Notes: generated from the sequence alone by a model not told the origin. A stretch of DNA of 64,000 nt from Bacteroidia bacterium (GCA_026391555.1 JAPLEB010000105.1:9356-73355), one strand, 5' to 3'; shown: positions 17,498-31,527, counted from the stretch's first letter. Program-made: numbers and translations.

Positions 17498-18221
17498 TCA
17501 TGTTAAAAAGTTCTTATCAATGTAGTTTTGAAACTTACTTTTATACTGATCGCTAACCGGAATATAAACTTTCCCGTCGAAAATAATCCGGTTCCTTTCT
17601 ATAACCGAAATCTTAGAAAGGTTAACTATATAAGATCTATGATCTATGCACTCTCATGAACCTGTCAGATGGTAATATCTCCTCAACAGACTTCATGCTT
17701 AACAGCGTCATTACCGGCTTAGCGCTGGTAAGGTGAATTCTGATATACTCACTCATTCCCTCAATATACTTTATATCGTCAAAGTTGATTCTGAGTAATT
17801 TATAATCAGATTTGATAAATAGAAAATCTTTATTGCTCCTGACTTCATCTGACTTTTGATGATGCGAATCAAACCATGTTTTAACCTTATTGGCTGACTT
17901 TAAGAAATCAACATAGCTGATGGGTTTAAGCAGGTAGTCGATGGCATCAACCCTGAAACCTTCTAATGCATATTCGCTGTAAGCCGTGACAAATACTATC
18001 TTAGGAGGATTTTCAAGAGTTTTAACGAAATCCATTCCGTTAAGATCGGGCATATTTATATCAACATACATGAGGTCAACCGGGATATTTTCTAAAATCT
18101 CAATTGCCTGAAAGGCGCTTTCACACTGCCCAACCAACTCCAGAAAAGGTGTTTTCTTAACGTAATCAGCTATTTGCCTCAAAGCCAAAGGTTCGTCATC
18201 TATTGCTATGCATCTGATCAT
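17498..18221 (-). pseudogene. LytTR-family response regulator disrupted by a 7-bp tandem duplication (gatctat gatctat at 17634-17647)
   Basis: The track ORF stops after FMRVHRS. Removing one 7-bp copy restores FMRVHRSYIVNLSKISVIERNRIIFDGKVYIPVSDQYKSKFQNYIDKNFLT* (238 aa), collinear with the intact paralog at 19732..20448. Confidence 0.85.
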
Positions 18222-18485: not shown

Positions 18486-19553
18486 TTAATTTCTCTGATA
18501 ATAAATATCGTAGGCAATCCAGTCGACAACATAAGCTGCAAAGTAAACCGAATGTAAAGAATCAAACAGGGTTTTTATGTTCTCAATTGAGTTACCAATT
18601 AAAGCAGAAACTGTTGAAGTCGTTCCATCTTCAAAAGTTATCTGGATATCTCGTTTTTTACAAACTGATGCTTCCGGGTCAGCTACCTTATCAACGATTG
18701 CAACTACAGCATCTGGTTGCAATAAACCATTTACGTATACTTCAACTGCTTTCGTGCCTGATTTTCTGATGATTTGTACATCACCGATGGTAAGAATGTA
18801 CTGGTGCTCGCGACCAAACCTGCCGGTGTCAATCTTTACAGTGAGTAATTTTTCTTCATATAATACCTTATTATCACCCGTAATTGTGAAGCTTGAAACA
18901 GTTGTATCGCCTGACTCATATTTATAATCTGCGGTATAGCTGCTGCTGAATGCATATTGAGAAGCATATTTGATACCCAGGGTCGGACTAACAAAATAAT
19001 TTATATTTAAGTTGCCAGCAAGAACATTATCCACACTGATCTCTGATGCCAGGATATAGTCAAAATCGTGATAACTGTTATAATTATTATGATAACCAGA
19101 TACAGCAATTGAAAAATTATTTGTCAGCAAAGAATCTGATGGTACATATTCTCTTAAATATCTTGGGTTCACAACTTTTTTTAATGGCATACGAACAATC
19201 ATCTTGCTGTTATCGGAAGCCTTATTGAAATACCTGATTAATGATAGTCCCCATCTGTCTGTTTTAGGTACAGGTTTATAATCATATACTCCTTTAACTG
19301 TATCAAGAGTAATATATACCCTATAATTTGAATCTGTAGTACTGGCAGACTTTTGAGTTCCGTCAGTTACAGTTAGAATACTATAAGCTTTGGAGGAGGA
19401 AATAGCATCCATAGCTGTATTTAAATTCAGAGCGCTCTGATTAATCGCTGATTTCAGAGAAAGGCTATTTACAATACCATCATTCTTTGCGCAACTCCAT
19501 AATAGTGCACTTAAGAAAGCAGTAACTAAAATGATTCGACCTTGATTTTTCAT
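18486..19553 (-). CDS. Hypothetical lipoprotein
   Basis: Signal/lipobox MKNQGRIILVTAFLSALLWSCAKNDG. Beta-rich S/T/N/Y composition; no motif recognised. Confidence 0.6.
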   Translation of the reverse strand: MKNQGRIILVTAFLSALLWSCAKNDGIVNSLSLKSAINQSALNLNTAMDAISSSKAYSILTVTDGTQKSASTTDSNYRVYITLDTVKGVYDYKPVPKTDRWGLSLIRYFNKASDNSKMIVRMPLKKVVNPRYLREYVPSDSLLTNNFSIAVSGYHNNYNSYHDFDYILASEISVDNVLAGNLNINYFVSPTLGIKYASQYAFSSSYTADYKYESGDTTVSSFTITGDNKVLYEEKLLTVKIDTGRFGREHQYILTIGDVQIIRKSGTKAVEVYVNGLLQPDAVVAIVDKVADPEASVCKKRDIQITFEDGTTSTVSALIGNSIENIKTLFDSLHSVYFAAYVVDWIAYDIYYQRN

Positions 19554-19731: not shown

Positions 19732-20448
19732 TTATCCCAAGGAATGCGAATGGATGTATTTTTGAAATATTTCTTTATATTGTTCACTTACAGGGATATA
19801 TACTTTACCCTCAAAAATTATCCTTGAATGGTCAATTGTGGTGATTTTCTCAAGGTTGACAATATATGAACGGTGTACTCTCATGAATTTATCTGAAGGT
19901 AGTTGTTCTTCAAGAACACGCAAACTTATAAGTGGCAAAAGAGATTTACCGTTTAGAAGATGAATGCGCACATATTCACGCATCCCTTCAATATAAATAA
20001 TGTCTTCCAGGCTGATACGGACCATTTTATACCCCGATTTTACAAACAAATATTCCCTGTCGCCCCCCTTTTTTGTTGCCTGTGGAAGAACATTTTCAAA
20101 ATAATTTCTGGCTTTATTAGCTGACTTTAAGAAATCACCATAACCGATTGGCTTAAGCAGGTAGTCGATGGCATCAACCCTGAAACCTTCTAATGCATAT
20201 TCGCTGTAAGCCGTGACAAATACTATCTTAGGAGGATTTTCAAGAGTTTTAACGAAATCCATTCCGTTTAGATCGGGCATATTAATATCAACAAACATCA
20301 GGTCAACCGGGATATTCTTTAAAACATCAATTGCCTTTAAGGCACTTTCACATTGTCCGGACAACTCGAGAAAAGGTGTTTTTTTAATGTAACCAATAAT
20401 CTGCCTCAAAGCAAGCGGCTCGTCATCTATTGCAATGCATCTGATCAT
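19732..20448 (-). CDS. LytTR-family response regulator (REC + LytTR DNA-binding domain)
   Basis: REC: IAIDDEPLAL...DLMFVDINMPDLNG...VFVTAY...LLKP. LytTR: ...IIYIEGMREYVRIHL...FMRVHRSYIVNL.... Its start overlaps the kinase stop by 4 nt. Confidence 0.9.
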   Translation of the reverse strand: MIRCIAIDDEPLALRQIIGYIKKTPFLELSGQCESALKAIDVLKNIPVDLMFVDINMPDLNGMDFVKTLENPPKIVFVTAYSEYALEGFRVDAIDYLLKPIGYGDFLKSANKARNYFENVLPQATKKGGDREYLFVKSGYKMVRISLEDIIYIEGMREYVRIHLLNGKSLLPLISLRVLEEQLPSDKFMRVHRSYIVNLEKITTIDHSRIIFEGKVYIPVSEQYKEIFQKYIHSHSLG

Positions 20449-21551
20449 AATGGTATTGATAGGTTAACAGTAAATAAATCTTTATTGTCGATTATATCAA
20501 GATGGTAATTATTACCGTACAGTAACTTTAAACGTTTTCGGGTGTTTTCAATACCTATCCCGGAAAATTCTTCAATCTGGCTTTTATCGGTTTTACTATT
20601 TTTCACAACCAACAGGAGTCGTTCTTCGCCTATAATAATATCTATATTGATAAACGATTCATCCTTATAACTGATACCATGCTTAAAAGCATTCTCAATT
20701 AATGAAGTAAATATAAACGGAGGTATCGTTTTTTCCGGAATAGTAGCAGGTAAATTAAGGGTAATGCTTACCTTCTCATTAAACCTTAACTTCATCAGGC
20801 TGATATAGCTTTCCAGAAATTCTATCTCTTTTTTTAATGTTGTTTTTTCAGTTTCTGTTTCATACAATAAGTAACGCATCATTTTCGATAGCTTAATTAT
20901 TGCCTCTTTGGCCTCCTCTGCATTAACATCAACCAGTGAATGGATATTATTCAAAGTATTCATCAAGAAATGGGGGCTAACCTGATTACGCAGAAGAACA
21001 AGTTGAGAAGCCACATTTTCTTTTTCAAGTCTTACTTTTTCATTTTCAATATTTATTCCTCTAAGACCTGAACGTAATCCTGTATCAAAGCCCACAAAAA
21101 GTATCGACAGAATCAGAAAGTTTGCAAAGGGAGGTATTGGCCTTGGTTGCCGGGTCTGTGCCGGACGCAAATTTCCAAACTGATCGACTCCCCCGGGAAA
21201 GGCATAAGGAGGTGACTTAATCTGATCCTCCAACGTGGGAACTTCAGGAGGCGGAACATTTTTGAATTTTGTATCGTAAATATAAGAACCTGCTGTGAAT
21301 AGAATTATAAGCCCCAACACTGACGCGATGAAAAAAACCTGCTTCCCCTTGAAAAGTAATCTGGGAACGAGTATGAACCGGTTTATAAGAAACACTACCA
21401 ATAGCGGGATAAGAATTTGCAGTTGCAAAAGTATGCTTCTTCGTATGGGACTGTAAATATCTTCCCTGAAAAGAATGGGAGTGAAAAGGAGAACCAGCCA
21501 AACGAAGATGATAAGAACTAATTCTGAATATTTTATTTTTATATTTTGCAT
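20445..21551 (-). CDS. Sensor histidine kinase of the LytS/YehU type (PF06580 His_kinase + HATPase_c) with an N-terminal TM region
   Basis: Multi-TM N-terminus, then QVSPHFLMNTLNNIHSL (the PHFL.N motif of PF06580) and a C-terminal ATPase block ...PPFIFTSLIENAFKHG...GIGIENTRKRLKLLYG. Confidence 0.85.
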   Translation of the reverse strand: MQNIKIKYSELVLIIFVWLVLLFTPILFREDIYSPIRRSILLQLQILIPLLVVFLINRFILVPRLLFKGKQVFFIASVLGLIILFTAGSYIYDTKFKNVPPPEVPTLEDQIKSPPYAFPGGVDQFGNLRPAQTRQPRPIPPFANFLILSILFVGFDTGLRSGLRGINIENEKVRLEKENVASQLVLLRNQVSPHFLMNTLNNIHSLVDVNAEEAKEAIIKLSKMMRYLLYETETEKTTLKKEIEFLESYISLMKLRFNEKVSITLNLPATIPEKTIPPFIFTSLIENAFKHGISYKDESFINIDIIIGEERLLLVVKNSKTDKSQIEEFSGIGIENTRKRLKLLYGNNYHLDIIDNKDLFTVNLSIPL

Positions 21552-21575
21552 TTCTTCTATTTAAAAAAATTAAAT

Positions 21576-21669
21576 GCGGAGAACCGCTGAGTTTTTCGCT
21601 GAGAACCGCAGAGTTAATCAATTAAATACTTTGCGTTTCTTTGCGATAGCTCTGCGTACCTCTGCGGTT
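21576..21669. repeat. Intergenic repeat island with direct GAGAACCGC(T/A)GAG repeats and a 10-bp inverted repeat aaccgcagag / ctctgcggtt
   Basis: gcggagaaccgctgag...cgctgagaaccgcagag...ctctgcgtacctctgcggtt. The inverted-repeat arms are at 21604-21613 and 21660-21669. It lies between the TPR-gene stop and the kinase start. Confidence 0.55.
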
Positions 21670-21686
21670 AAAAACAACTACTTTCA

Positions 21687-22298
21687 TTACTTTATCAGAC
21701 TAAGCCCCTCTTTTGCACTGGCATCCCCGGGGGAGTAAAGTAAAGCCTTATTAAAAAGAATTTTTGCTTCACGGGTTTTCCCTAACCTAAAGTTAGACCA
21801 TGCCAGCATAAGCACACTCTGATAATCGAAGGGATACAGGTTAACAACCTTTTCGAACTGCTGATATGCCAGCTTGTAATCCTTCTTATCGTATGAGATA
21901 AGTCCCATACGGTAAAGAGCTACCGTGTTGTTGGGATCAATAGTAAGTATTTTATTATACTGTTCTATAACTATATCCCAGTTACCAAGAGAAGAGGCAG
22001 GTAAAACTGCTCCAAGTCGGGGTTCAATAGCATAAGGCATCAAATCTATAGCCTTATTATAGTAGCCCAACGATTCGGAGAACTGCCCCTGAAGGTAGGT
22101 TAGCCATCCCAACCGGAGGTTAATCTCATAAGAATTAGCATCATAATATGCCTTAAGTGATGCTGAAGCATCGGCATACTTCTCCAGTTTTTCCTTCGCG
22201 TAACTATCGCTGAATGCTGCAGTTAGCTTCGTATAGTCCTGCGCTTTTGATAATAAAACCGTAAAAATAAAAATTGTAATTAATGTAATTCTTTTCAT
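21687..22298 (-). CDS. Secreted TPR-repeat protein
   Basis: Signal peptide MKRITLITIFIFTVLLSKAQ followed by TPR-like A..Y...G....A...Y.KAL..(D)P repeats throughout. Confidence 0.75.
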   Translation of the reverse strand: MKRITLITIFIFTVLLSKAQDYTKLTAAFSDSYAKEKLEKYADASASLKAYYDANSYEINLRLGWLTYLQGQFSESLGYYNKAIDLMPYAIEPRLGAVLPASSLGNWDIVIEQYNKILTIDPNNTVALYRMGLISYDKKDYKLAYQQFEKVVNLYPFDYQSVLMLAWSNFRLGKTREAKILFNKALLYSPGDASAKEGLSLIK

Positions 22299-22300
22299 GA

Positions 22301-23548
22301 TTATTTGATTTTGCAGGTTAATTTAAATGCGACTCCAAATGAATTAATATTCAGTTTATTAGTTCTTAAATAGGAATTGAGATTCCATGAGTAAATTTGA
22401 TTTTTACAATAGTATGGCGATATTGTAATGCTGAATTTTTTGTCAGGCAAAAGGATAATATTGCTGTAAATAGTTGTTTCCGGTATCTGGAATGAATTAT
22501 TTATCATATATCCCTGATTTCTTGCATATAGAAATGAGTTACCTTTAATTATGCCTGATTCCAGCCAGATCGACTTAGAAATCTTAAATCCTATCTCCTG
22601 ATTAATCTGATAAGTTCCCCCCCAGTACTTATCGCTCTGATACATTCCGCCTGATGTAAAATACAGATTTAGGTTCGCGAATGGCAGGTATGTTAAATAT
22701 CCTTCACCCCTTATCTGGTTTGAATTACTGAAATTGCTAAACGATAAGTTTGCTCCGGTTCGTATCTTCCACCCGTTTTTCGCAATTCCCAAACCACCCA
22801 GGTATTCGATGTTTGTTTGTGTCTGAGTAGTAACATAAGGATAAAATGCAACATGACCAAACCCGGAAAACTCCCAACCAGGGAAAATATAACCATTAAG
22901 TTTGGCATACAGCTGATGTTGGGTGAAGTTAAGACCTATTCCTGAAGTATCTGAAACAGAGTAAACTGTTCCTGTTTTGTGATAGTTTGTATAGGCAAAA
23001 GTTCCCTTGAATCTGGCTGAAAAATAACTTTCAAAACCGGCATTGAAACTTAAACTGCTTTTTACTGCTTCGTAGTATAAGTTATTGGTTTTATAAAGAG
23101 TTACATCGGAGCCCGAAGCAGAGGAACCTGCATAAACAGATGATAACCCTGGTTTGCCTATTGATTTAAGAATATTGTTTTTTTTGTACTTTGGTACAGA
23201 TTCAAGGTATAGATAAGCATCGGCTTTTCTTCCTGAAAAAAGATAGCTAAAGTAAATATACTCTCTTGAAATTGTATCTATTGAATTAAATTCCATTGCT
23301 CGTGTAAAATTTTTCAAAATACTGGAATAGAGTTGTTTATTATATGCAAGTATTCCCAGTCGCATACGCAGGTAATAGTAATCCATTCCGTGAGACAGCA
23401 TCGTGTCTGCTGTATTTTTCAGGTTCTTATAATCACCCTTTATGTAGTAATTATATGTTTGCTGATCGAGTGTCTTAAAATCGCTTTGAGCAGACAAATT
23501 TACTGAAAAGACCAGCAGAAGGGCTGTTATATTTAATAAGATTCGCAT
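22301..23548 (-). CDS. Secreted protein with an N-terminal TPR-like region and a putative outer-membrane beta-barrel
   Basis: Signal peptide MRILLNITALLLVFSVNLSAQ. The C-terminal ~280 aa has alternating aromatic/polar beta-strand patterning (FESYFSARFKGTFAYTNY, GWEFSGFGHVAFYPY, LNLYFTSGGMYQS). The barrel call is inference only. Confidence 0.45.
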   Translation of the reverse strand: MRILLNITALLLVFSVNLSAQSDFKTLDQQTYNYYIKGDYKNLKNTADTMLSHGMDYYYLRMRLGILAYNKQLYSSILKNFTRAMEFNSIDTISREYIYFSYLFSGRKADAYLYLESVPKYKKNNILKSIGKPGLSSVYAGSSASGSDVTLYKTNNLYYEAVKSSLSFNAGFESYFSARFKGTFAYTNYHKTGTVYSVSDTSGIGLNFTQHQLYAKLNGYIFPGWEFSGFGHVAFYPYVTTQTQTNIEYLGGLGIAKNGWKIRTGANLSFSNFSNSNQIRGEGYLTYLPFANLNLYFTSGGMYQSDKYWGGTYQINQEIGFKISKSIWLESGIIKGNSFLYARNQGYMINNSFQIPETTIYSNIILLPDKKFSITISPYYCKNQIYSWNLNSYLRTNKLNINSFGVAFKLTCKIK

Positions 23549-25710
23549 GTGGCTTCTAAATTCAAACTTTCATTTTCAAATTTCAAACTATTGTCGCTGT
23601 TCACCACGAGTTTAAATTCCCTGGCCCAAACCTGCCGGCTGAAAGAGTAGCCGGTAAGTTTTGTATAATACTCAAAGCTATCCACATCAAACTCTGATCC
23701 TATCATTTTCATCCTGACACTTGAATCTGATTTTAAGTACATGAAAAAGGGTGCTGTAATATCGTGCAGAAAGAGCCTCCATCCGGCAAATGTACGGTTT
23801 ACAGGTAAAGAATCTGTTGAGACATAACCATCAATATATAAAAGAGGAACTCTGAACGCCGCCAGATAAAAATAGTACAGCAACGATTTCCGGTCTCCGT
23901 CAAAATGGGTGAAACAGAAGTGAACACCATCGTACCGGAAGTTGGCAATTGATTTTGTATCATGACAGAATATATAGGATCTGTTATAAATATTGGTAAA
24001 GACCTCCCAGGTAATTTTATCTGTACCTTTTGAAGTTTTGACGTTCCAGTTCAGTTTTGTGCCAGGCATCAGATTGAACGTTATTTTAAGAATCAAATTT
24101 TCTTCAATGGGTTTCACACTCTGTCCTTTGGATGGATAGCTGAACGTTCTGAGTTCTTTCCCATTTTCTAAATACGCAAAAAGCGGGTATTTTAATGTTT
24201 TTGAACCAATATAAGGTGTTGTTTGAAGCTGAAAATGAAGGTGTGGGTATGGGGAGCGTCCGGAATTTCCAACCTTTGCTATGACCTGGCCATAATGGAC
24301 ATTATCGCCTGTTTTCACTGAAACCGATCCTTTCTGAAGATGACTAAGTTTTGAGTATAATCCTTCGGCATGTTTGATTATCACAGTATTTCCCCAGTTT
24401 TTAAATGTGTTAACATCTCCAATCTTATTATCGTCGATTCCATCCTCGGAAACAACTACTGATCCATCGGCTGGTGCAACTACATTCTGACCAAAACAGT
24501 AATAGTCCTTCAGGTTGTTTCCATTATCGTTATATTGAGCCAAATCTCTGTTGATAATTACAAAATCCCAGGCATTGGACCACTCGCCTTTGTGAGTGTA
24601 CTCACCGTTATGGCCCTGGCTGACATGCCACTCTCCAAAGAAAGGAAGTTTAATCTGCAACCAGCCAAAGTTCGGGAAACGTTTTGTAAAACTCTGGTAA
24701 GAGTATAGATTGCGCTCCGGTGTGCCCTCCTGAATTTGCACTTCCTTAAACTGACTCTGCACCGTTCTAAACCTTAACGAGTATATGAAAGTCAATATTA
24801 TTATGTTAAAAGGAAGCGATAGCAAAGTCAGATTAAAAGGTTTAAGCAAAACAAACAGACCTGCCGAAACTAAGGCTATAATAGGTGTAATGGCAAATGC
24901 CCAGAAGAACGACTGTTTAGATGGAATATAGAAATACCCGCCGATAGCAATGGCTCCTAAAATGAAATTAAATCCAATATAGTTATAACCCAACCGGGTC
25001 AGGTCCATACCAAAAAAGGAGTAAGCCAGCCAGGCAACGCTAAAACCCAGCAACGAAAGCATAAAAGCGATCCTGGAATAGAAAATCAATGCGACTGCTA
25101 CAACAAATCCCGCGAAAACATTAAACTGAAAGAATATTGCACCCAGGGAAAGAAAGTAGCTGTTTACAAAGTTGGATGTAATCTTCCCAACTAACCATTG
25201 ATGCAGATTTACAAGAGGATGTCCGCCAATAATAAAGAGTTTATTGAGAACATAAACCCCGCTTTGATTATCTTCCGTTCCGCTTAGCATCCCTCCGGCG
25301 CTTAAGACAATCCAGATACTTATAACGAATGGAATCGAGAGATATGGAAGGTAGTATTTGCCTAAAATACCCTGGAAAGTAATTGTGATTAAAAGGGTTA
25401 AAAACCCTGATAATATTGCTATTACAACGATTACAAAGGTTAATTCATAATAGTACCCTAACCCAAGTCCCACCAGAAGACTATTGAAACCGTAAAACCC
25501 TTTCGTTGTAGGTAATTTATCAAACTTCAATAACGAAGCAGTGATGTTTGCGGTCAGTACTGAAAGCAACCCGGCAAAACCGGCAGAAATATCGAGGAAG
25601 GAAACTATAACCAGGGGAATGGCAAACCAATAGCTCTCCGAGAAGAATATCTGGGAGTAGCTTCTTAATACTCCCTGGAAGAAAGTGGATATTGTGGCGT
25701 TTTTTAACAT
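23533..25710 (-). CDS. Fusion protein: urea-transporter (UT)-fold polytopic membrane domain + M23 metallopeptidase domain + ~200-aa C-terminal domain of unknown function
   Basis: N-terminal LRSYSQIFF...GFYGFNSLLVGLGLG and about 10 TM segments (UT-family-like). The central part carries M23 motifs: HKGEWSNAWDF (HxxxD region) and GNSGRSPYPHLHFQLQ (HxH). Confidence 0.75.
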   Translation of the reverse strand: MLKNATISTFFQGVLRSYSQIFFSESYWFAIPLVIVSFLDISAGFAGLLSVLTANITASLLKFDKLPTTKGFYGFNSLLVGLGLGYYYELTFVIVVIAILSGFLTLLITITFQGILGKYYLPYLSIPFVISIWIVLSAGGMLSGTEDNQSGVYVLNKLFIIGGHPLVNLHQWLVGKITSNFVNSYFLSLGAIFFQFNVFAGFVVAVALIFYSRIAFMLSLLGFSVAWLAYSFFGMDLTRLGYNYIGFNFILGAIAIGGYFYIPSKQSFFWAFAITPIIALVSAGLFVLLKPFNLTLLSLPFNIIILTFIYSLRFRTVQSQFKEVQIQEGTPERNLYSYQSFTKRFPNFGWLQIKLPFFGEWHVSQGHNGEYTHKGEWSNAWDFVIINRDLAQYNDNGNNLKDYYCFGQNVVAPADGSVVVSEDGIDDNKIGDVNTFKNWGNTVIIKHAEGLYSKLSHLQKGSVSVKTGDNVHYGQVIAKVGNSGRSPYPHLHFQLQTTPYIGSKTLKYPLFAYLENGKELRTFSYPSKGQSVKPIEENLILKITFNLMPGTKLNWNVKTSKGTDKITWEVFTNIYNRSYIFCHDTKSIANFRYDGVHFCFTHFDGDRKSLLYYFYLAAFRVPLLYIDGYVSTDSLPVNRTFAGWRLFLHDITAPFFMYLKSDSSVRMKMIGSEFDVDSFEYYTKLTGYSFSRQVWAREFKLVVNSDNSLKFENESLNLEATCESY

Positions 25711-25722
25711 TAATTGGGGGAT

Positions 25723-25785
25723 GTTTCGTGTTTCGTGTTTCGGGTTTCGATTTGACTTTTATCTTTTTACATTTGTCTTTTGTCT
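25723..25785. repeat. Nine-unit heptamer-periodic tract filling an intercistronic gap
   Basis: gtttcgt gtttcgt gtttcgg gtttcga tttgact tttatct ttttaca tttgtct tttgtct, read in phase. It lies between the decarboxylase stop (25786) and the UT/M23 start (25710). Confidence 0.9.
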
Positions 25786-27162
25786 TCAACCCAGGTACTC
25801 CGGTATTACCTCATTAGCTGATATATTTTCAAGTGTTTCAGCACGCCTGATTACATGAACCTCCCTGTTCTGATCTATTAAAACAACATTTGGCCGGGTG
25901 GTTATAAACTGCAGCCACTGGGTGTTATTGTAAGCTCCTGTTCTGGTTATTACAAACCTGTCGCCACGTTTCAATGCAGGGAACATAAGCGAAGGTCTGA
26001 TAACATCTATATTCATACAAAGCGGACCAAAGATTGTTGTCTCCTCAACCAAACCAGAATGAATGCTAACGGGGTGAATTTTATGATCGTACCAGAATGA
26101 TGTAAAAAGCAGATTCACACCAACATCAACAATGGTTGCTCTGTGACCATCCGAAAGATGTTTATTTGCAAGCACAGAACCAGCAATGTACCCTGCGTTA
26201 TCTATTAGCGCACGTCCGGTTTCCAGTATTAATGTCGGCAGTTTATCGGGTTTAATCTGAGAATTGATAATTGCTGATGTTATAGCCTCTGCGTATTCAT
26301 CGAACGAAGGAGTTGTATCCTCACCCGAAAGGTAGGCTCCCCTCAGAGTATTCTTCGATGCAAATCCTCCGCCCATATCGATATATGAAATATGATGATC
26401 AAATTTCTGAGCTATATTGTAAGTCAGATCAGCAAGCTTTGTAGCCGCGACCCGGTAAGCATCAACACTCATTATATAGGTACCTATATGAGTATGTAAA
26501 CCCATTAGTTTTAGTTTTGGGTTCATCATAATGCGATTTATTGCATCCCATGCTTCACCGTTCTCGTAGTTTAATCCGAACCTGTCCCATTTGGGATAAA
26601 TTCCAATATCCATATTTACCCTGACGGCTACCCTGGCCTCAATATTTTTTCTCTGACAGACATCCGATAACATGAACAGCTCATCTATATGATCGATGTG
26701 AATGAACGATCCATTCCTTACGGCTTTCTCCAGATCATTAATACTTTTACCCGGTCCGTTAAAAATAATATTTTCTCCTTTTACACCATTCCCGATCGCT
26801 TTATCGTACTCAAAACCCGATACAACCTCGGCCCACGATCCTTCCTGATGGAAAATCCGGCAGATGGAATCTAAATAATTGGTTTTGTAACTCCATGCCA
26901 TCTGGACTTTTTGATATCTGAGGTTGAATGCTCTTTTGATATCCTCCATCCCTTTTCTAATTGTCCGTTCAGAAAAAACATAAAGAGGTGATCCATATTT
27001 GTCAAGGAGATCATCTACCTTAACTCCGTCTATAAAAGGCAATGGGGCAACTACCGTTCCAACCCCATGCTTCGATGGAACACCCGGATTTAAACGGGTT
27101 ATTGTTGGTCTTTCGAACATTAATTTTGACATGATATTGTGTTTATTATTTTCGTTCTGCAA
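25786..27162 (-). CDS. Fold-type III PLP-dependent decarboxylase (Orn/DAP/Arg decarboxylase family, DAP-decarboxylase-like)
   Basis: PLP-lysine motif WSYKTNY, glycine loop IDMGGGF, active-site GPLCMNID, and HTHIGT. Confidence 0.85.
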   Translation of the reverse strand: MQNENNKHNIMSKLMFERPTITRLNPGVPSKHGVGTVVAPLPFIDGVKVDDLLDKYGSPLYVFSERTIRKGMEDIKRAFNLRYQKVQMAWSYKTNYLDSICRIFHQEGSWAEVVSGFEYDKAIGNGVKGENIIFNGPGKSINDLEKAVRNGSFIHIDHIDELFMLSDVCQRKNIEARVAVRVNMDIGIYPKWDRFGLNYENGEAWDAINRIMMNPKLKLMGLHTHIGTYIMSVDAYRVAATKLADLTYNIAQKFDHHISYIDMGGGFASKNTLRGAYLSGEDTTPSFDEYAEAITSAIINSQIKPDKLPTLILETGRALIDNAGYIAGSVLANKHLSDGHRATIVDVGVNLLFTSFWYDHKIHPVSIHSGLVEETTIFGPLCMNIDVIRPSLMFPALKRGDRFVITRTGAYNNTQWLQFITTRPNVVLIDQNREVHVIRRAETLENISANEVIPEYLG

Positions 27163-27175
27163 TTTTCAAACTCTT

Positions 27176-28222
27176 CTATAGCTCCCCTGAAGTGGTTAGC
27201 CTGGAGAAAAGTTCCAGGTCCACAATCATATCGTAGGAGTACCTCACAAACATTTTACCCACATCGTAACGGGTGAAGGGTTTCACTTCCAGACCCAATG
27301 TCAGCTTCAGCAGTGCTTCAGGAATATTCTGACCGGCGCCAACTGCCAGATAAACCCATGCAGGAATTCTCGGGTTAATTTCAAGGAGGTAAAGTTTATT
27401 GTCATCTGATCTTATAAGTTCCAGCTCCATTCCCCCTTTCCATTTTGTTTGTGATATTATCTTTTTTGCCAGATCAAGTAAAGTGTGATCTTCAATAGTT
27501 ATGCCTCCCCATGCCTTACCCTTATCGGTAATGTATTGTTTACGCATTGGTACTGCTGCTATCAGATTGCCTTTCCCATCACCAAGTGCAATAACATTCA
27601 CCTCGGTTCCCCTGATATATTCCTGAACAATAACGGGAAGGCCCCATTTAGCTGTCATCTTTGAGAAGTAGATTGCTGCTTGTTCCACTGAGTGAGCAGC
27701 ATAAGCATCGTAGTATTTCCCCTTTATCATCACCGGATAGTTCATCGATTTAAGGGTATTATTTAAATCAGATACGCTAAAAACCTCAGTACCGGAAGGG
27801 ACATTAACACCATATTTTTTCCCGTAAGCAGGAAGATTTGATTTATTTCTCTCATCAAACTGTTCCATTGTAGGCAGATAGGTTTTTATCCCGATTCCCT
27901 CAAGCCTTTTTTCAAGTTTTATAAATGAAAAGAGCTCAGCATCAAAATTCGGGATAATAACATCTAACTTCTCTTTATGGTGTATTTCCAATAATCTATT
28001 GAATAAAGCGTCCTTCCCTTCCGCCGGGTAAGGAATCATATATGTTTTATCAACCAGGTCGCTCATGTAAATACCAGGTTCAAGATGCTCGTATGCCAAT
28101 CCGATTATCCTGACGTCGAAATCCTTTGATTCACGAATTCCGCGTATCACAGGAATCCCCGGACCCGGGCTGTCAATGTTGTTAAGACCCGTTACTGCAA
28201 CCGTTACTTTCTGAGGGTTCAT
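27176..28222 (-). CDS. ATP-grasp ligase
   Basis: Pre-ATP-grasp N-domain, then YPVMIKGKYYDAY, VIVQEYIRGTEVNV and MELELIRSDDNKLYLLEINPRIP (the ATP-grasp E..N Mg-binding block). Confidence 0.8.
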   Translation of the reverse strand: MNPQKVTVAVTGLNNIDSPGPGIPVIRGIRESKDFDVRIIGLAYEHLEPGIYMSDLVDKTYMIPYPAEGKDALFNRLLEIHHKEKLDVIIPNFDAELFSFIKLEKRLEGIGIKTYLPTMEQFDERNKSNLPAYGKKYGVNVPSGTEVFSVSDLNNTLKSMNYPVMIKGKYYDAYAAHSVEQAAIYFSKMTAKWGLPVIVQEYIRGTEVNVIALGDGKGNLIAAVPMRKQYITDKGKAWGGITIEDHTLLDLAKKIISQTKWKGGMELELIRSDDNKLYLLEINPRIPAWVYLAVGAGQNIPEALLKLTLGLEVKPFTRYDVGKMFVRYSYDMIVDLELFSRLTTSGEL

Positions 28223-28224
28223 TT

Positions 28225-28467
28225 TTATTCCTCCAGTAGATTATTTACACTAAGGTCATTCACAAAATCGGACAGATATCTTTCCAGTGAAATTTTATCC
28301 ACATCGTATTTTCCCAGCAACAAATCGGTTATCTGACTAATATTTTTCCCTTCTTTAATCAGCATAAGTACCTCTTTACCGATATTATTCAATGTAAATG
28401 AGTCGCCTGTAGAGGGGTTAAAAACGAATCCGTTTTCACTGAGCGCTATGTTTCCTTTAATAAGCAT
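28225..28467 (-). CDS. PqqD-family small protein (peptide-binding RRE-like)
   Basis: 80 aa: ...GFVFNPSTGDSFTLNNIGKEVLMLIKEGKNISQITDLLLGKYDVDKISLERYLSDFVNDLSVNNLL fits the PqqD pattern (x-LN-x-G-x-I-W/L...tv.eI...L...Y.vd...l..Dv..Fl..L...gL). Its stop is 2 nt from the ATP-grasp start. Confidence 0.75.
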   Translation of the reverse strand: MLIKGNIALSENGFVFNPSTGDSFTLNNIGKEVLMLIKEGKNISQITDLLLGKYDVDKISLERYLSDFVNDLSVNNLLEE

Positions 28468-28742
28468 AAAAGTATTTTTATGTTTTTATTATCGTTCAAA
28501 ATTTAACTTTAATAATAATCTGAACAAACGTAGTCCCAAATAAAATCTTACACAAAACTAATCAACGAATTGGGAGGTTGTGTATGTATAACCGGGGTTT
28601 TTATCAGTAGAAAGATAACCCATCACAACCTGTCCGCAGGGAGAAGTTCTCAAAACCAACGGAACAAGGTAATACAGTAAGATCAAAGAATTTGATAAGA
28701 CGATAAAATTTTTTTGTTATAAAACATATAATCACGAATAAC

Positions 28743-29639
28743 CTACTTATAATGCTCATCCTTAGCCTTTAATGATAAAAAAACGCTTGGCATCGGCGAT
28801 TTGACTGTTATCAATTCACCATTTACAGGATGAGGAAATGAAAGGGAATAGGCATGAAGCCTGACACGACGTACATAATCACTTGAAGCGCCATATTTGC
28901 GATCTCCTACTATCGGGCAGCCAATATCTGAAAGATGCACTCTTATCTGGTTTTTACGGCCGGTATCTGTTTTAATATCAAGGAGGGCGTAATTATTCAA
29001 AAGTCTGATGGTTTTATAGTGTGTAATGGCAAATTTAGCATTTGCTGTTTCAGTAACTGAATGCATTTTCAACGATTTATCTTCGATGAGCCAACTTTTA
29101 ATGGTGCCTTCGGGACTTACAGGGATTCCTTCAACGAGAGCAAAATAATGTTTTTCTGTTTCTATCCACTTGTCTTTAATAGTATTCATTGCAATATCCG
29201 ACTTGGCAAATAACAACACTCCCGATACCTCCTTATCAATCCGGTGCACAACAAACGCTCTCACTTTTCCTTTACTTATCTGTTTTAAAAACTGAGAAAT
29301 GATTTGTAGTATACTTTTGCTGCCATCGGTACTCGATGTAGAAATGCCGGCAGGTTTATCAATCACAATTACATGCTGGTCCTCATATAAAACAGGAAAA
29401 GGAAGCCTGGCTTTGGCAGAAATTCCGGGATGTAGGTTGATGTCAACGATATCTCCCGGGTTTAATGGATATGAATGTAAAGTGATTGATTCATTATTTA
29501 CACGAATTGTACCGCTTTGCAACAACTTTTTTATCCTGGCTCTTGGTGAGTCAGGATATTGTTCAGAAAGAAATTCAAAAAGAGTAAATGATTTATTTAT
29601 TGTTGTTTTCACGTAGTTATATGTTAATTGAAGAATCAC
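28743..29639 (-). CDS. RluA-family pseudouridine synthase with an N-terminal S4-like domain
   Basis: HRIDKEVSGVLLFAK (the HRLD..TSG catalytic Asp motif), KHYFALVEG and GRKNQIRVHL. Confidence 0.85.
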   Translation of the reverse strand: MILQLTYNYVKTTINKSFTLFEFLSEQYPDSPRARIKKLLQSGTIRVNNESITLHSYPLNPGDIVDINLHPGISAKARLPFPVLYEDQHVIVIDKPAGISTSSTDGSKSILQIISQFLKQISKGKVRAFVVHRIDKEVSGVLLFAKSDIAMNTIKDKWIETEKHYFALVEGIPVSPEGTIKSWLIEDKSLKMHSVTETANAKFAITHYKTIRLLNNYALLDIKTDTGRKNQIRVHLSDIGCPIVGDRKYGASSDYVRRVRLHAYSLSFPHPVNGELITVKSPMPSVFLSLKAKDEHYK

Positions 29640-29865
29640 ATTCGGGTTGCTTAATAACCGGTCAAAAGGTGTAAAACACTTAAACTATTACACCACCTTC
29701 TTCAGTACGCCGAAGACACCTCTTATAAATGTTGCGCTTATAAATACTTTAACAAGCTCCTCCTGGGTATCGTGCTTCAAAAAAGTGTCCAACCCCAATA
29801 AGGTTTAGTTATTGTGTACCAATACGGATCAAGAACAGTATACAGAACAGCTATAATAATTTTAG

Positions 29866-30363
29866 TTACTGAAAAGTCTGATGTGGAATGGGGTTTCGCG
29901 GATCATTTATTTTTGTTGAACCGATGACATTGCACACACAAAGGACATAATTAAAAACATAACGAACATCTCCCTGGGGACCGAGGTAGGCAGGAAAATT
30001 TGCAGGATCTCCGGTCTTAGGATCGCTTCTTTGTGCCCCGGCTCCATGCACATCCCTAAGATATCCATTCATTTTTCCCTGTGCTTTTCCAAATGCAATA
30101 TAAACAGCAGCTTTATAAGGATTTGTACCATCAAGATGAGTAGTACTGGTCCAAAAATAAGGATATTGACCTGATTGGCCGTTTGGATCAATTATCGCAG
30201 TCGTTGAAAACAAGGGGTCTGAAATTATTGCCGAATTGTTGTAGAAGACGTGAACCCCCGTTTCAACAATCGGATAAGTCAGGTTTTGGCTTTGTCCGGT
30301 GAAACTTGTTGATGTTGCAAGAAAAACAGATAGCATTAGTATGTAATGCAGACTTCTCTTCAT
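29866..30363 (-). CDS. Secreted DUF1566 (Lcl C-terminal-like) domain protein, apparently short
   Basis: Start trimmed to MKRSLHYILMLSVFLATSTSF. C-terminal YFWTSTTHLDG...AVYIAFGKAQG...DVHGAGAQRSDPKTGDP...GPQGDVRYVFNYVLCV resembles DUF1566 proteins. Confidence 0.5.
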   Translation of the reverse strand: MKRSLHYILMLSVFLATSTSFTGQSQNLTYPIVETGVHVFYNNSAIISDPLFSTTAIIDPNGQSGQYPYFWTSTTHLDGTNPYKAAVYIAFGKAQGKMNGYLRDVHGAGAQRSDPKTGDPANFPAYLGPQGDVRYVFNYVLCVCNVIGSTKINDPRNPIPHQTFQ

Positions 30364-30462
30364 GGTTTTTCTATCTATCCGGGGAAAAAATAACCCAACA
30401 TTAATAAATATTTTATGCGATAAACTTAGCATCTGTGACTAGGAACCCGCCAAGGCGTGTCC

Positions 30463-31527
30463 CTACTGGTATAAATAAATTTCTGATACTGATTTTATCG
30501 CCCTGTCGGAGAAAAAATCAGCAGCAGCAAAGATACGGAAAAGACCTCCATCTTCCTCATCCTTCGTTTTTATCAGCATGAATTCCTGCTGGTCATTTCT
30601 GTTAAATAGTTCAGAATATGAAACAGCACACCTGTAACCATCTTTACCGGCAAAACACATTACTCCTGATTGCAGATTCTTCCTGTTAATGGGATAATAC
30701 TTCAATAGCATATCTTTAAGGAGAACCCCTGTAAAGGGTGAAGTACTGTGAATGCCTTTACCCCTGCCATAGAAAATTGTATTAAAAGTGATGAGGTCTT
30801 TTGCCATTTCAGGAGCCAGAACAGCAAGCTGTTTATCTCTGCTGAATATCTTAAAATCTGAAGAATACATCGGCGACATACCCTTTACTACAGGAAATGA
30901 TTTCCGAATTGATCTTACCGTGATTTTCACCGGATATGAAATGTTTCTTTCAGTCACAAGATCGCACGCGGAAACAATTCTACTCTCTCCAGGGAGTGGC
31001 CATAACTCTTTTGTTTTGGAAGGTACTATCCGCGACACATTAGTGGCTATAATAATCTTATGAAGGTTGTTTGGATAGTAAATTTCGCCCCAACTGAAAA
31101 CTACCTTTTCACCTTTTTCATTTTCAATTTCAACATAAATATCAATAATTGGATTAAACTCAGCAGTGTTCACCTTTTTAAGAATTATTTTATTGAGTAC
31201 ATCAAAAAGTGAATACCCGTCATACCTGTAAGCGCCAACAAATATGTCACTACCGGCACTGTCGAGAAGTGTCTCTTTGACGATAACCGAATGTATAAGA
31301 AGCTCTGAAAAATCTACTTTCCCCGGATTTGCTATCTCTCCATCAATAATTAAATCCTTTACAGGAAGGGCATAGGTTTCTGTATTATCATAAAAATTAT
31401 TGGTCATGTCTGATGTGTCAATGAATTGTAACCCTAACTGGGTAACTTTACCTGAGTTTTGTCCCGGTCGGGTGTTACACGAAATCAAACTTAGTGAAAA
31501 TACAATGAACAAAGTTATTGATCTCAT
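30463..31527 (-). CDS. Hypothetical lipoprotein, possibly with two SUOX/molybdopterin-oxidoreductase-like fold domains lacking obvious cofactor motifs
   Basis: Lipobox SLSLISCN. Two repeats have a pattern L.V.G.V..P..v....L...(x)...G....G.Y.Y.G..L.D.L.... Function not supported. Confidence 0.45.
   Translation of the reverse strand: MRSITLFIVFSLSLISCNTRPGQNSGKVTQLGLQFIDTSDMTNNFYDNTETYALPVKDLIIDGEIANPGKVDFSELLIHSVIVKETLLDSAGSDIFVGAYRYDGYSLFDVLNKIILKKVNTAEFNPIIDIYVEIENEKGEKVVFSWGEIYYPNNLHKIIIATNVSRIVPSKTKELWPLPGESRIVSACDLVTERNISYPVKITVRSIRKSFPVVKGMSPMYSSDFKIFSRDKQLAVLAPEMAKDLITFNTIFYGRGKGIHSTSPFTGVLLKDMLLKYYPINRKNLQSGVMCFAGKDGYRCAVSYSELFNRNDQQEFMLIKTKDEEDGGLFRIFAAADFFSDRAIKSVSEIYLYQ

Follow-up and report, generated by a model that had tools for sequence, protein, structure and literature searches.

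We analysed a window of 64,000 nucleotides (nt) from a Bacteroidia bacterium (GCA_026391555.1, JAPLEB010000105.1:9356-73355), the window meaning hereafter this whole stretch of DNA. In it, a minus-strand open reading frame (ORF) with an ATG start, at 23533..25710, encodes a protein of 725 amino acids (aa), which we name UT-M23-X. This protein is composed of three parts: a channel domain of the urea-transporter (UT) fold, a peptidase domain of family M23, and a C-terminal domain of about 220 aa, named domain X. Its gene takes the fourth place in a compact minus-strand run of six, whose products are, in this order, a PqqD-like protein, an ATP-grasp ligase, an FslC-like decarboxylase, UT-M23-X, a predicted TPR/beta-barrel outer-membrane protein (OMP) and a periplasmic TPR protein; the gene junctions are tight or overlapping across the operon. 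The three-part architecture had been put forward, with exactly the same coordinates, in an original prediction made from the sequence alone, and it is borne out here, far beyond what chance would give, by a Pfam UT match, a Pfam M23 match and an unmatched C-terminal region. The strings then quoted are all found in the translation, namely LRSYSQIFF (aa 15-23), GFYGFNSLLVGLGLG (aa 71-85), HKGEWSNAWDF (aa 373-383) and SPYPHLHFQ (aa 486-494).

An assembly or gene-calling artefact is ruled out, because independent assemblies, well over 100 of them, contain the fusion at an unchanged length. UT-M23-X is a real, widespread and well-conserved membrane protein fusion of Bacteroidota and, by profile as well as by structure, it is a member of both the UT fold family and peptidase family M23. 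Residue conservation was counted throughout over 54 divergent family members (31-82% identity), and a model of the protein was built with AlphaFold2 (AF2), using an alignment of 54 homologues as input. This model is confident (pLDDT 90.8, pTM 0.85). When it is compared with solved structures, as had been proposed, its UT part superposes on solved UTs and its M23 part on LytM domains, including that of EnvC.

The synteny of the operon was scanned in one genome per species, over 50 loci from Bacteroidota (Bacteroidales and Cytophagales) and Chlorobiota showing 41-82% identity. Wherever the flanking DNA suffices, each of the 50 species-level loci shows these six genes in an unchanged order, and all-against-all clustering of every ORF in the related loci reveals no other widely conserved gene. 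The whole cassette is carried, in particular, by a cultured isolate, Williamwhitmania taraxaci (GCA_900096565.1, contig FMYP01000069.1, 387-9282), in the order seen in the window and together with the kinase and LytTR pair described below. The fusion is tied to the PqqD-like, ATP-grasp and decarboxylase genes in every locus with enough flank (50 genomes). A common, scattered fusion without linkage to these genes had been named as the pattern that would speak against a link with them; the fusion is indeed common, but it is never unlinked. As for the operon context, the three upstream genes named in the original prediction are confirmed by Pfam (PqqD-like, ATP-grasp and pyridoxal phosphate (PLP)-dependent decarboxylase), but two downstream, translationally coupled envelope-protein genes had been overlooked. 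We propose that the six-gene operon spans the cell envelope, with UT-M23-X as its inner-membrane component.

The UT domain (24676..25710, minus strand; aa 1-345), delineated by Pfam, phmmer and Foldseek, is built of ten transmembrane (TM) helices, two half-helices (Pa and Pb) and a conserved C-terminal 'SPExNLY' helix. It matches the Pfam UT family (PF03253) at aa 12-310, from position 2 to position 289 of the 292 of the profile (E=5.2e-53, 180.6 bits versus a cut-off of 25). A phmmer search against the Protein Data Bank (PDB) retrieves dvUT of Desulfovibrio vulgaris (3K3F, E~1e-24), the match covering aa 2-337 of UT-M23-X. In the AF2 model, the inverted-repeat 5+5 TM fold with two half-helices is present and superposable on a solved UT: Foldseek aligns this part with dvUT (3K3F/3K3G) at E~1e-15, with a target-normalised TM-score of 0.84-0.86, and it also superposes on the human, bovine and zebrafish UTs. 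The N-terminal 345 aa thus have the fold of dvUT (3K3F) and of the SLC14 transporters UT-A/UT-B (target-normalised TM-score 0.86), and the likeness extends to the two LPxx(T/S)xPF motifs, the GFN motifs, the pore Phe, the full cytoplasmic pocket and the TPExNL tail of dvUT. In this tail, TPEDNL in dvUT is the counterpart of our 'SPExNLY', of which E332 and Y336 are invariant. The difference lies first in the approximately 390 extra C-terminal residues (M23 and X) borne by UT-M23-X.

The pore itself is well conserved. The half-helix motifs LPYLSIPF and LTLLSLPF carry the LPxx(S/T)xPF signature in both halves, Ser replacing Thr in both. P122, P127, F128, F301, N76, N248, F23 and F194 are kept in 50-54 of the 54 homologues (F23 and N76 in 50, F194 in 52, N248 in all of them), and Q20 is kept in 41. 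The pore residues being conserved in 41-54 of 54 members, the pore is therefore under selection.

The urea-recognition motif of human UT-A2 (hUT-A2) consists of Q67/V68/Y123/T176 and Q231/V232/F287/T338, and Ala substitutions within it, Q231 being among those named, reduce the urea flux (PMC11589576). When the residues of our UT domain are mapped onto this motif by pairwise alignment, the cytoplasmic urea pocket is found intact, Q67/V68/Y123/T176 corresponding to Q20/I21/F75/S125. In the extracellular pocket, the polar residue (Q231 in hUT-A2, Glu in dvUT) is replaced by A191, and the position is occupied by Ala, Ser or Gly in 50 of the 54 homologues (33, 12 and 5, respectively). UT-M23-X therefore lacks the complete two-pocket motif, and it also falls well under the cut-off of the Yut urea-transporter equivalog (TIGR03441; 102 bits versus 274.6). 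Because the extracellular-pocket Gln is lost, and because its mutation lowers the urea flux of human UTs, the selectivity of the channel is probably altered. Likewise, the loss of the Q231 equivalent and the score under the Yut cut-off suggest a UT-fold channel that is probably functional, yet not tuned like a canonical urea pore. Both results lend some support to the earlier view that ordinary urea transport is unlikely.

UT-M23-X could alternatively be a true channel for urea, or for ammonia or a small amide, in which M23-X would act as a regulatory plug or sensor, the operon using or making urea or ammonia, for instance via an ATP-grasp enzyme resembling carbamoyl phosphate synthetase (CPS). 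The full-length match to the UT profile and the intact cytoplasmic pocket (Q20, I21, F75, S125) would agree with such a role, as would the existence of C-terminal regulatory modules on other UTs, the other C-terminal partners of UT domains being ankyrin repeats and EF-hands (2026 survey, PMC12998343). We nevertheless consider a urea channel improbable. Besides the loss of the extracellular-pocket Gln and the missed Yut cut-off, no urease, urea amidolyase, arginase/agmatinase or nitrogen-regulation gene is present in or beside the cassette in any locus, so that UT-M23-X, unlike urea UTs, never adjoins genes of urea metabolism. Furthermore, a purely regulatory domain would not hold five catalytic residues invariant, as the peptidase domain does.

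This M23 metallopeptidase domain, of the LytM fold (24196..24663, minus strand; aa ~350-505), is recognised by Pfam, by residue invariance and by its fold. It matches Peptidase_M23 (PF01551) at aa 407-497 (E=1.8e-18, 67 bits versus a cut-off of 28.7), and the corresponding part of the AF2 model is aligned by Foldseek with the LytM domains of EnpA, DipM, EnvC and lysostaphin, with target-normalised TM-scores of 0.63-0.77. H373, D382, H457, H490 and H492 form a complete catalytic set that is invariant in 54/54 homologues; the zinc ligands, whose integrity had been raised as a point to check, thus appear to be intact, though the first motif is H-x8-D. In the profile of the family, H457 and H490/H492 align with the histidines of the YYHL and PHLHF motifs of Campylobacter jejuni Pgp3, and they also line up with the catalytic His of zoocin A and lysostaphin. 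The Pgp3 structures 6JN7 and 6JN1 are of mutants at exactly the positions aligned with H457 and H490/H492. The first zinc motif is atypical: an invariant T-H373-x8-D382-F is found in place of H-x3-D, and it is followed by an insertion of about 18 residues. As sequence profiles fail to align this half of the domain, the assignment of H373 and D382 is based on their invariance and on their position in the model.

Since the five residues are invariant and aligned with active-site mutants of Pgp3, the M23 domain is to be regarded as an enzyme and not as an EnvC/NlpD-like activator. A degenerate LytM activator of the EnvC/NlpD/ActS type was considered and rejected on account of this invariance; UT-M23-X also scores far below the NCBIfam cut-offs of EnvC, NlpD and ActS. 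To judge from its residues, the domain is thus catalytically competent and apparently active. It has in common with the M23/LytM endopeptidases (lysostaphin, LytM, MepM/ShyA, Pgp3, DipM) the LytM fold and the intact zinc/catalytic His, and the half of these enzymes containing …GN.i.I.H…Y.HL…G..G.SG…PHLHF is conserved in it. It differs from them by its T-H-x8-D-F motif, by the residues inserted before the PV.AP.DG strand, by its fusion behind a polytopic channel, without signal peptide or extra TM helix, and by its richness in cysteines.

Domain X (23536..24195, minus strand; aa ~506-725) consists mainly of beta-structure (about 13 strands, as against 3 short helices) and, modelled alone by AF2, reaches a pLDDT of 91.9. 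The claim that the last ~200 aa resemble nothing known holds: aa ~503-725 match no Pfam or NCBIfam family, no Pfam match is found in domain X of 30/30 members, and the comparison with solved folds yields none at E<=0.001, the best resemblances being to LolA, RseB, LolB and CRABP2 (E of at least 6e-3, TM-score ~0.3). When 1.84 billion cluster representatives are searched exhaustively with HMMER, domain X is retrieved in 270 clusters at 50% identity. The full-length matches are all of ~690-750 aa (mostly 720-748), with the domain at ~470-720, and no stand-alone or secreted M23-X is found among them, the 12 shorter matches inspected being N-truncated fragments of the same fusion. Domain X is therefore family-specific and seen only in the UT-M23-X architecture.

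The operon starts with the PqqD-like, RRE-fold protein (28225..28467, minus strand; 80 aa), which matches PF05402 (E=9.4e-10, 39.1 bits versus 23.4) and is thus an RRE-type protein encoded with modifying enzymes. At the head of the operon it is conserved in 36 related loci, and it invariably ends in a short acidic tail (…NNLLEE in the window; …NLLEE, …LTEPQA, …QADEKN or …ETDEEKGN elsewhere), and its stop codon lies 2 nt from the ATP-grasp start. The acidic tail and the abutting ATP-grasp gene recall the LysW/LysX carrier-ligase pairs; the terminal residue is not conserved. That the PqqD-like protein may be a LysW-like carrier is a sub-hypothesis only, which is weakened by the variation of both the tail length and the terminal residue and by the replacement, in some lineages, of the most conserved Glu by Gln.

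The second gene encodes an ATP-grasp carboxylate-amine ligase of 348 aa (27176..28222, minus strand; ATPgrasp_Ter 9.6e-14, ATP-grasp_3 2.6e-8), which has no close solved relative and is 50-91% identical across loci. A second homologue search, with this ligase as the query, yielded only close orthologues and no informative distant context. The third gene encodes a fold-type III PLP decarboxylase of 458 aa (25786..27162, minus strand). Its closest relative in the PDB is FslC (7KH2, E=3.1e-54), followed by diaminopimelate (DAP) decarboxylases (about 1e-37 to 4.5e-37) and BtrK (1e-30). Its motif GPLCMNID resembles GPSCMQHD of FslC (CMxxD) and not GGLCESSD of the DAP decarboxylases (CESxD); the enzyme misses the cut-off of the NCBIfam FslC model (215.9 bits versus 500) and is FslC-like rather than FslC. 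FslC is the N-citrylornithine decarboxylase, and BtrK decarboxylates a carrier-tethered glutamate. The proximity to FslC, the shared CMxxD motif and the presence of BtrK among the next relatives therefore point to an amino-acid substrate whose side chain would be acylated or would hold the tether.

A ligase paired with a decarboxylase of the DAP decarboxylase fold is also found in the rhizoferrin pathway of Francisella (FslA ligase and FslC) and in the butirosin pathway (carrier BtrI, ATP-grasp BtrJ and BtrK). The decarboxylases of both act on an amino acid tethered via its side chain, and in butirosin biosynthesis a small carrier protein (~80-90 aa) is encoded alongside, as here. However, our ATP-grasp enzyme has no close characterised relative, our small protein is of the PqqD/RRE fold and not an acyl carrier protein, and a UT channel, an M23 peptidase and TPR/OMP partners are lacking from both pathways.

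Downstream of UT-M23-X lies the gene of the predicted OMP (22301..23548, minus strand; 415 aa), whose start overlaps the UT-M23-X stop by 16 nt and which is syntenic in 44 loci. In this protein a signal peptide is followed by an N-terminal TPR and then by a C-terminal part rich in beta-structure. The protein matches no Pfam family, Pfam OMP models included, and the profile of its family matches TPR proteins at aa ~62-115. Its distant orthologues end with an OMP beta-signal (…GGIKWKF, …GLKWKL, …LNFQW), and the close group of the window with …KLTCKIK. The last gene of the cassette encodes a periplasmic TPR protein of 203 aa (21687..22298, minus strand), with a signal peptide and matches to TPR_2 (5.9e-18) and other TPR families; it is syntenic in ~39 loci, with 46-86% identity. 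The organisation of the OMP is reminiscent of the TPR and beta-barrel exporters (Slam/type XI, PgaA, BcsC), as are the OMP-type terminal motif of most homologues and the separate periplasmic TPR protein encoded alongside, the barrel being predicted here from sequence. It differs from these exporters in that the 415-aa protein matches neither DUF560 (Slam) nor PgaA nor any other Pfam OMP family, and in that no polysaccharide synthase or lipoprotein cargo gene is found nearby.

A seventh gene recurs beside or inside the cassette in 11 of ~45 loci, at three positions and in both orientations (L019:2345-3388, L028:8934-9977, L048:3914-4954, L003:14058-15077, L043:14339-15397, L034:7881-8933 and five more loci). 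It encodes a polytopic acyltransferase of the AT3/HGSNAT type, of about 345 aa (PF01757 3e-16, PF07786 1e-13), which was looked for in the window and is absent from it. This gene suggests an extracytoplasmic acetylation of the product or target of the pathway.

No TM helix follows the UT fold in the AF2 model and no signal peptide is found, so that M23-X is expected on the same side of the membrane as the UT termini. In mammalian UTs both termini are cytoplasmic, and UT-A1 (PDB 8BLO) is a tandem of two UT domains with a cytoplasmic linker between them. Since homologous UTs of known topology have their termini inside, and since ankyrin and EF-hand domains are what follows the UT domain elsewhere (PMC12998343), we consider it rather likely that M23-X is cytoplasmic. 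The cysteine pattern of M23-X also fits a reducing compartment slightly better: there are 1-10 Cys per sequence, at variable positions and in odd number in 22 of 54 members. C405, in DYYC, is kept in 45/54 and C582 in 46/54, a C-terminal Cys (aa 722) is present in 25/54, and the active-site loop CGNSGRS (aa 480) has its Cys in 28/54, Val being found in the protein of the window. C582 and the C-terminal Cys are often found together. The positive-inside rule was considered as a topology indicator and discarded as uninformative here. The short loops predicted 'outside' have on average more K/R than those predicted 'inside' (5.5 versus 2.3), and the N-terminus and the post-channel segment are basic; dvUT and human UT-A2 have the same conserved lysines in these loops, which makes the bias a family trait and not a topology signal.

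The best model, to which we give a probability of roughly 0.35, is that of a cytoplasm-facing, channel-tethered amidase that would free, for export, a small compound made by the ligase/decarboxylase pathway. Cytoplasmic enzymes would make a small amide-linked conjugate: in the ATP-grasp step a diamino acid would be joined, through its side-chain amine, to a carboxylate; the PLP decarboxylase resembling FslC would next take off the alpha-carboxyl, and the 80-aa PqqD-like protein would serve as a chaperone or carrier. On the cytoplasmic face, directly behind the last UT helix, the M23 domain would hydrolyse the amide or isopeptide bond of the conjugate at the pore mouth, M23 enzymes such as MepM and ShyA cutting amides to the side-chain amine of diamino acids. 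The small uncharged fragment would then diffuse via the modified UT channel to the periplasm, where the co-translated TPR protein and the TPR/beta-barrel OMP and, in some species, the AT3/HGSNAT-type acyltransferase would process it further. The architecture, the intact catalytic residues, the conserved pore signature and the invariable synteny are observed, whereas the membrane side, the class of substrate and the coupling of cleavage to permeation are the parts of this model that we infer. As the fusion is always in one operon with the ligase, the decarboxylase and the outer-membrane proteins, the role of UT-M23-X is probably to set free and hand on a small product, an amide or amine, and not simply to transport urea. 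The earlier interpretation of the fusion, as a coupling of export with processing or of import with release, is supported in part, by the three-part architecture, the intact catalytic residues and the linkage to the upstream genes.

Several points weigh against this amidase model. No gene for a scaffold or precursor peptide is found within the operon or on either side of it, and the presence of the PqqD-like protein is thereby not accounted for. The UT pore passes only urea-sized, planar, uncharged solutes, whereas free amines derived from a decarboxylase are charged. In addition, the short 'outside' loops are richer in K/R, UT-M23-X is translationally coupled to two exported TPR proteins, the weak fold resemblances of domain X are to the periplasmic LolA, LolB and RseB, and the AT3 acyltransferase, an enzyme that normally modifies extracytoplasmic acceptors, recurs in 11 loci. 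With these last four points, a periplasmic M23-X fits equally well, and the linkage to downstream envelope proteins keeps a periplasmic cell-wall role alive.

In such a role, the UT fold would be inserted with its termini out, and M23-X would be a periplasmic, membrane-anchored peptidoglycan DD-/LD-endopeptidase that would act with the TPR protein and the OMP in envelope remodelling or tethering, the cytoplasmic enzymes supplying a small effector or a wall-precursor modification via the UT pore. The K/R count of the short loops, the LolA, RseB and LolB likeness of domain X and the AT3/HGSNAT loci are all in keeping with it. So are the 16-nt overlap with the OMP gene, the constant position of the OMP and TPR genes downstream and the frequent co-occurrence of C582 with the C-terminal Cys; moreover, the characterised M23 enzymes with intact ligands all act on peptidoglycan outside the cytoplasm (the NCBIfam matches being Pgp3, ShyC, MepM and DipM). 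However, UTs of established topology are termini-in with the same K/R pattern, no family member has an extra TM helix or a signal peptide, and no secreted, stand-alone M23-X exists among the matches. The many variably placed and often odd-numbered Cys, including that of the CGNSGRS loop in 28/54, argue in the same direction, as does the H-x8-D motif with its ~18-aa insertion, which is unlike wall hydrolases, and the strictly conserved channel pore would be left without a role. We regard a periplasmic endopeptidase, the main rival of the amidase model, as possible, though on the doubtful side.

The amidase model could also take the form of a 'cleave-and-release' machine, in which a cytoplasmic M23 zinc amidase would carry out, at the UT pore mouth, the last hydrolysis of a carrier-assisted small-molecule pathway, so that the product would never be free in the cytoplasm. 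This machine would be a channel-based, energy-independent counterpart of the peptidase-containing ATP-binding cassette (ABC) transporters (PCATs), feeding a TPR/beta-barrel outer-membrane route; we consider this form speculative and rather unlikely. In PCATs and in scaffold-peptide pathways (3-thiaglutamate/PEARL, fosfazinomycin), a hydrolase tied to export likewise frees the product from its carrier, and an RRE/PqqD protein guides the modifying enzymes. The differences are that no ABC/ATPase module, C39 domain or precursor/scaffold gene is detected here, and that the conduit is passive and urea-sized.

The likeness to PCATs would go further if UT-M23-X were the leader peptidase and exporter of a ribosomally synthesised and post-translationally modified peptide (RiPP). 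The PqqD-like RRE would then present a precursor encoded elsewhere, the ATP-grasp enzyme and the decarboxylase would modify it, and the M23 domain, as a Gly-Gly-type endopeptidase, would cut the leader during export. A stand-alone PqqD/RRE protein is indeed the first gene, ATP-grasp and RRE proteins co-occur in RiPP and scaffold-peptide pathways (PMC8939145; PMC13622209), and M23 enzymes cleave Gly-Gly bonds, as double-glycine leader peptidases do. However, small ORFs were hunted at a size of at least 30 aa anywhere in 51 loci, and in ~45 loci no conserved one is present upstream of the PqqD-like gene, between the genes or downstream of the TPR gene. A peptide would not fit through the UT pore, which is far too narrow; PLP decarboxylases need an alpha-amino acid that is free, an uncommon situation in peptides; and both the high conservation (ATP-grasp 50-91% identical) and the single-copy, housekeeping-like distribution are atypical for RiPP clusters. 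A RiPP exporter thus seems very unlikely to us.

As for the expression of the operon, a candidate Bacteroidota-type promoter (28525..28556, minus strand) is found about 50-60 nt upstream of the PqqD start codon, with a -33 box TTTG (28556-28553) and a -7 box TAcgTTTG (28532-28525), the Bacteroides consensus being TTTG / TAnnTTTG. Both boxes are in register in an alignment of the closer relatives, and the 5' untranslated region of the operon would be only about 50 nt long. A scan for sigma-70 promoters and terminators gave matches no commoner than in shuffled sequence, and an Rfam search at E<=1 over 20000-31000 revealed no riboswitch or other RNA leader. Two more boxes, CTGATAAAA (28607-28599) and TTGAT (28565-28561), are in register upstream of the PqqD-like gene in the closer relatives, their starts being 42 nt apart (region 28525-28607, minus strand). 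A regulator, possibly the LytTR protein encoded next to the cassette, may bind at these two boxes.

Immediately downstream of the cassette are indeed a histidine kinase gene (PF06580-type; 20445-21551, minus strand) and, next to it, a LytTR response regulator gene (19732-20448, minus strand). This pair adjoins the cassette in about 11 close loci and in W. taraxaci, but not in the distant loci, and it is possibly a dedicated regulator pair of the closer relatives only. The window has two paralogous LytTR regulators, at 17637-18221 and 19732-20448 (minus strand), with near-identical N-termini (MIRCIAIDDEPLALRQI…), which flank a 355-aa exported protein (18486-19553). The 194-aa copy ends with …FMRVHRS, without the last ~44 residues of the LytTR domain, and it may be truncated or frameshifted.

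To our knowledge, the only role described for UT channels is that of passive urea pores, and M23 enzymes with an intact active site have been described solely as cell-wall hydrolases acting outside the cytoplasm. We found no literature combining a UT with ATP-grasp or PqqD, and the bare UT+M23 architecture is listed once, in a 2026 domain survey, without genomic context or functional analysis (PMC12998343). No earlier description appears to exist of the six-gene operon, of domain X, of the altered pore or of an intact M23 enzyme placed, as is likely here, in the cytoplasm. The strictly conserved UT/M23 fusion in this operon implies that many environmental Bacteroidota and Chlorobiota possess a pathway across the cell envelope that has not been described so far, and for which W. 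taraxaci is an experimentally accessible cultured host. With a cytoplasmic peptidase, the substrates of M23 chemistry would come to include small molecules or carrier-bound compounds, and UT pores would pass cargo other than urea. With a periplasmic one, the fusion would represent a new way to anchor, and perhaps to chemically gate, a wall hydrolase. Either placement would give a function to about six 'hypothetical' gene families.

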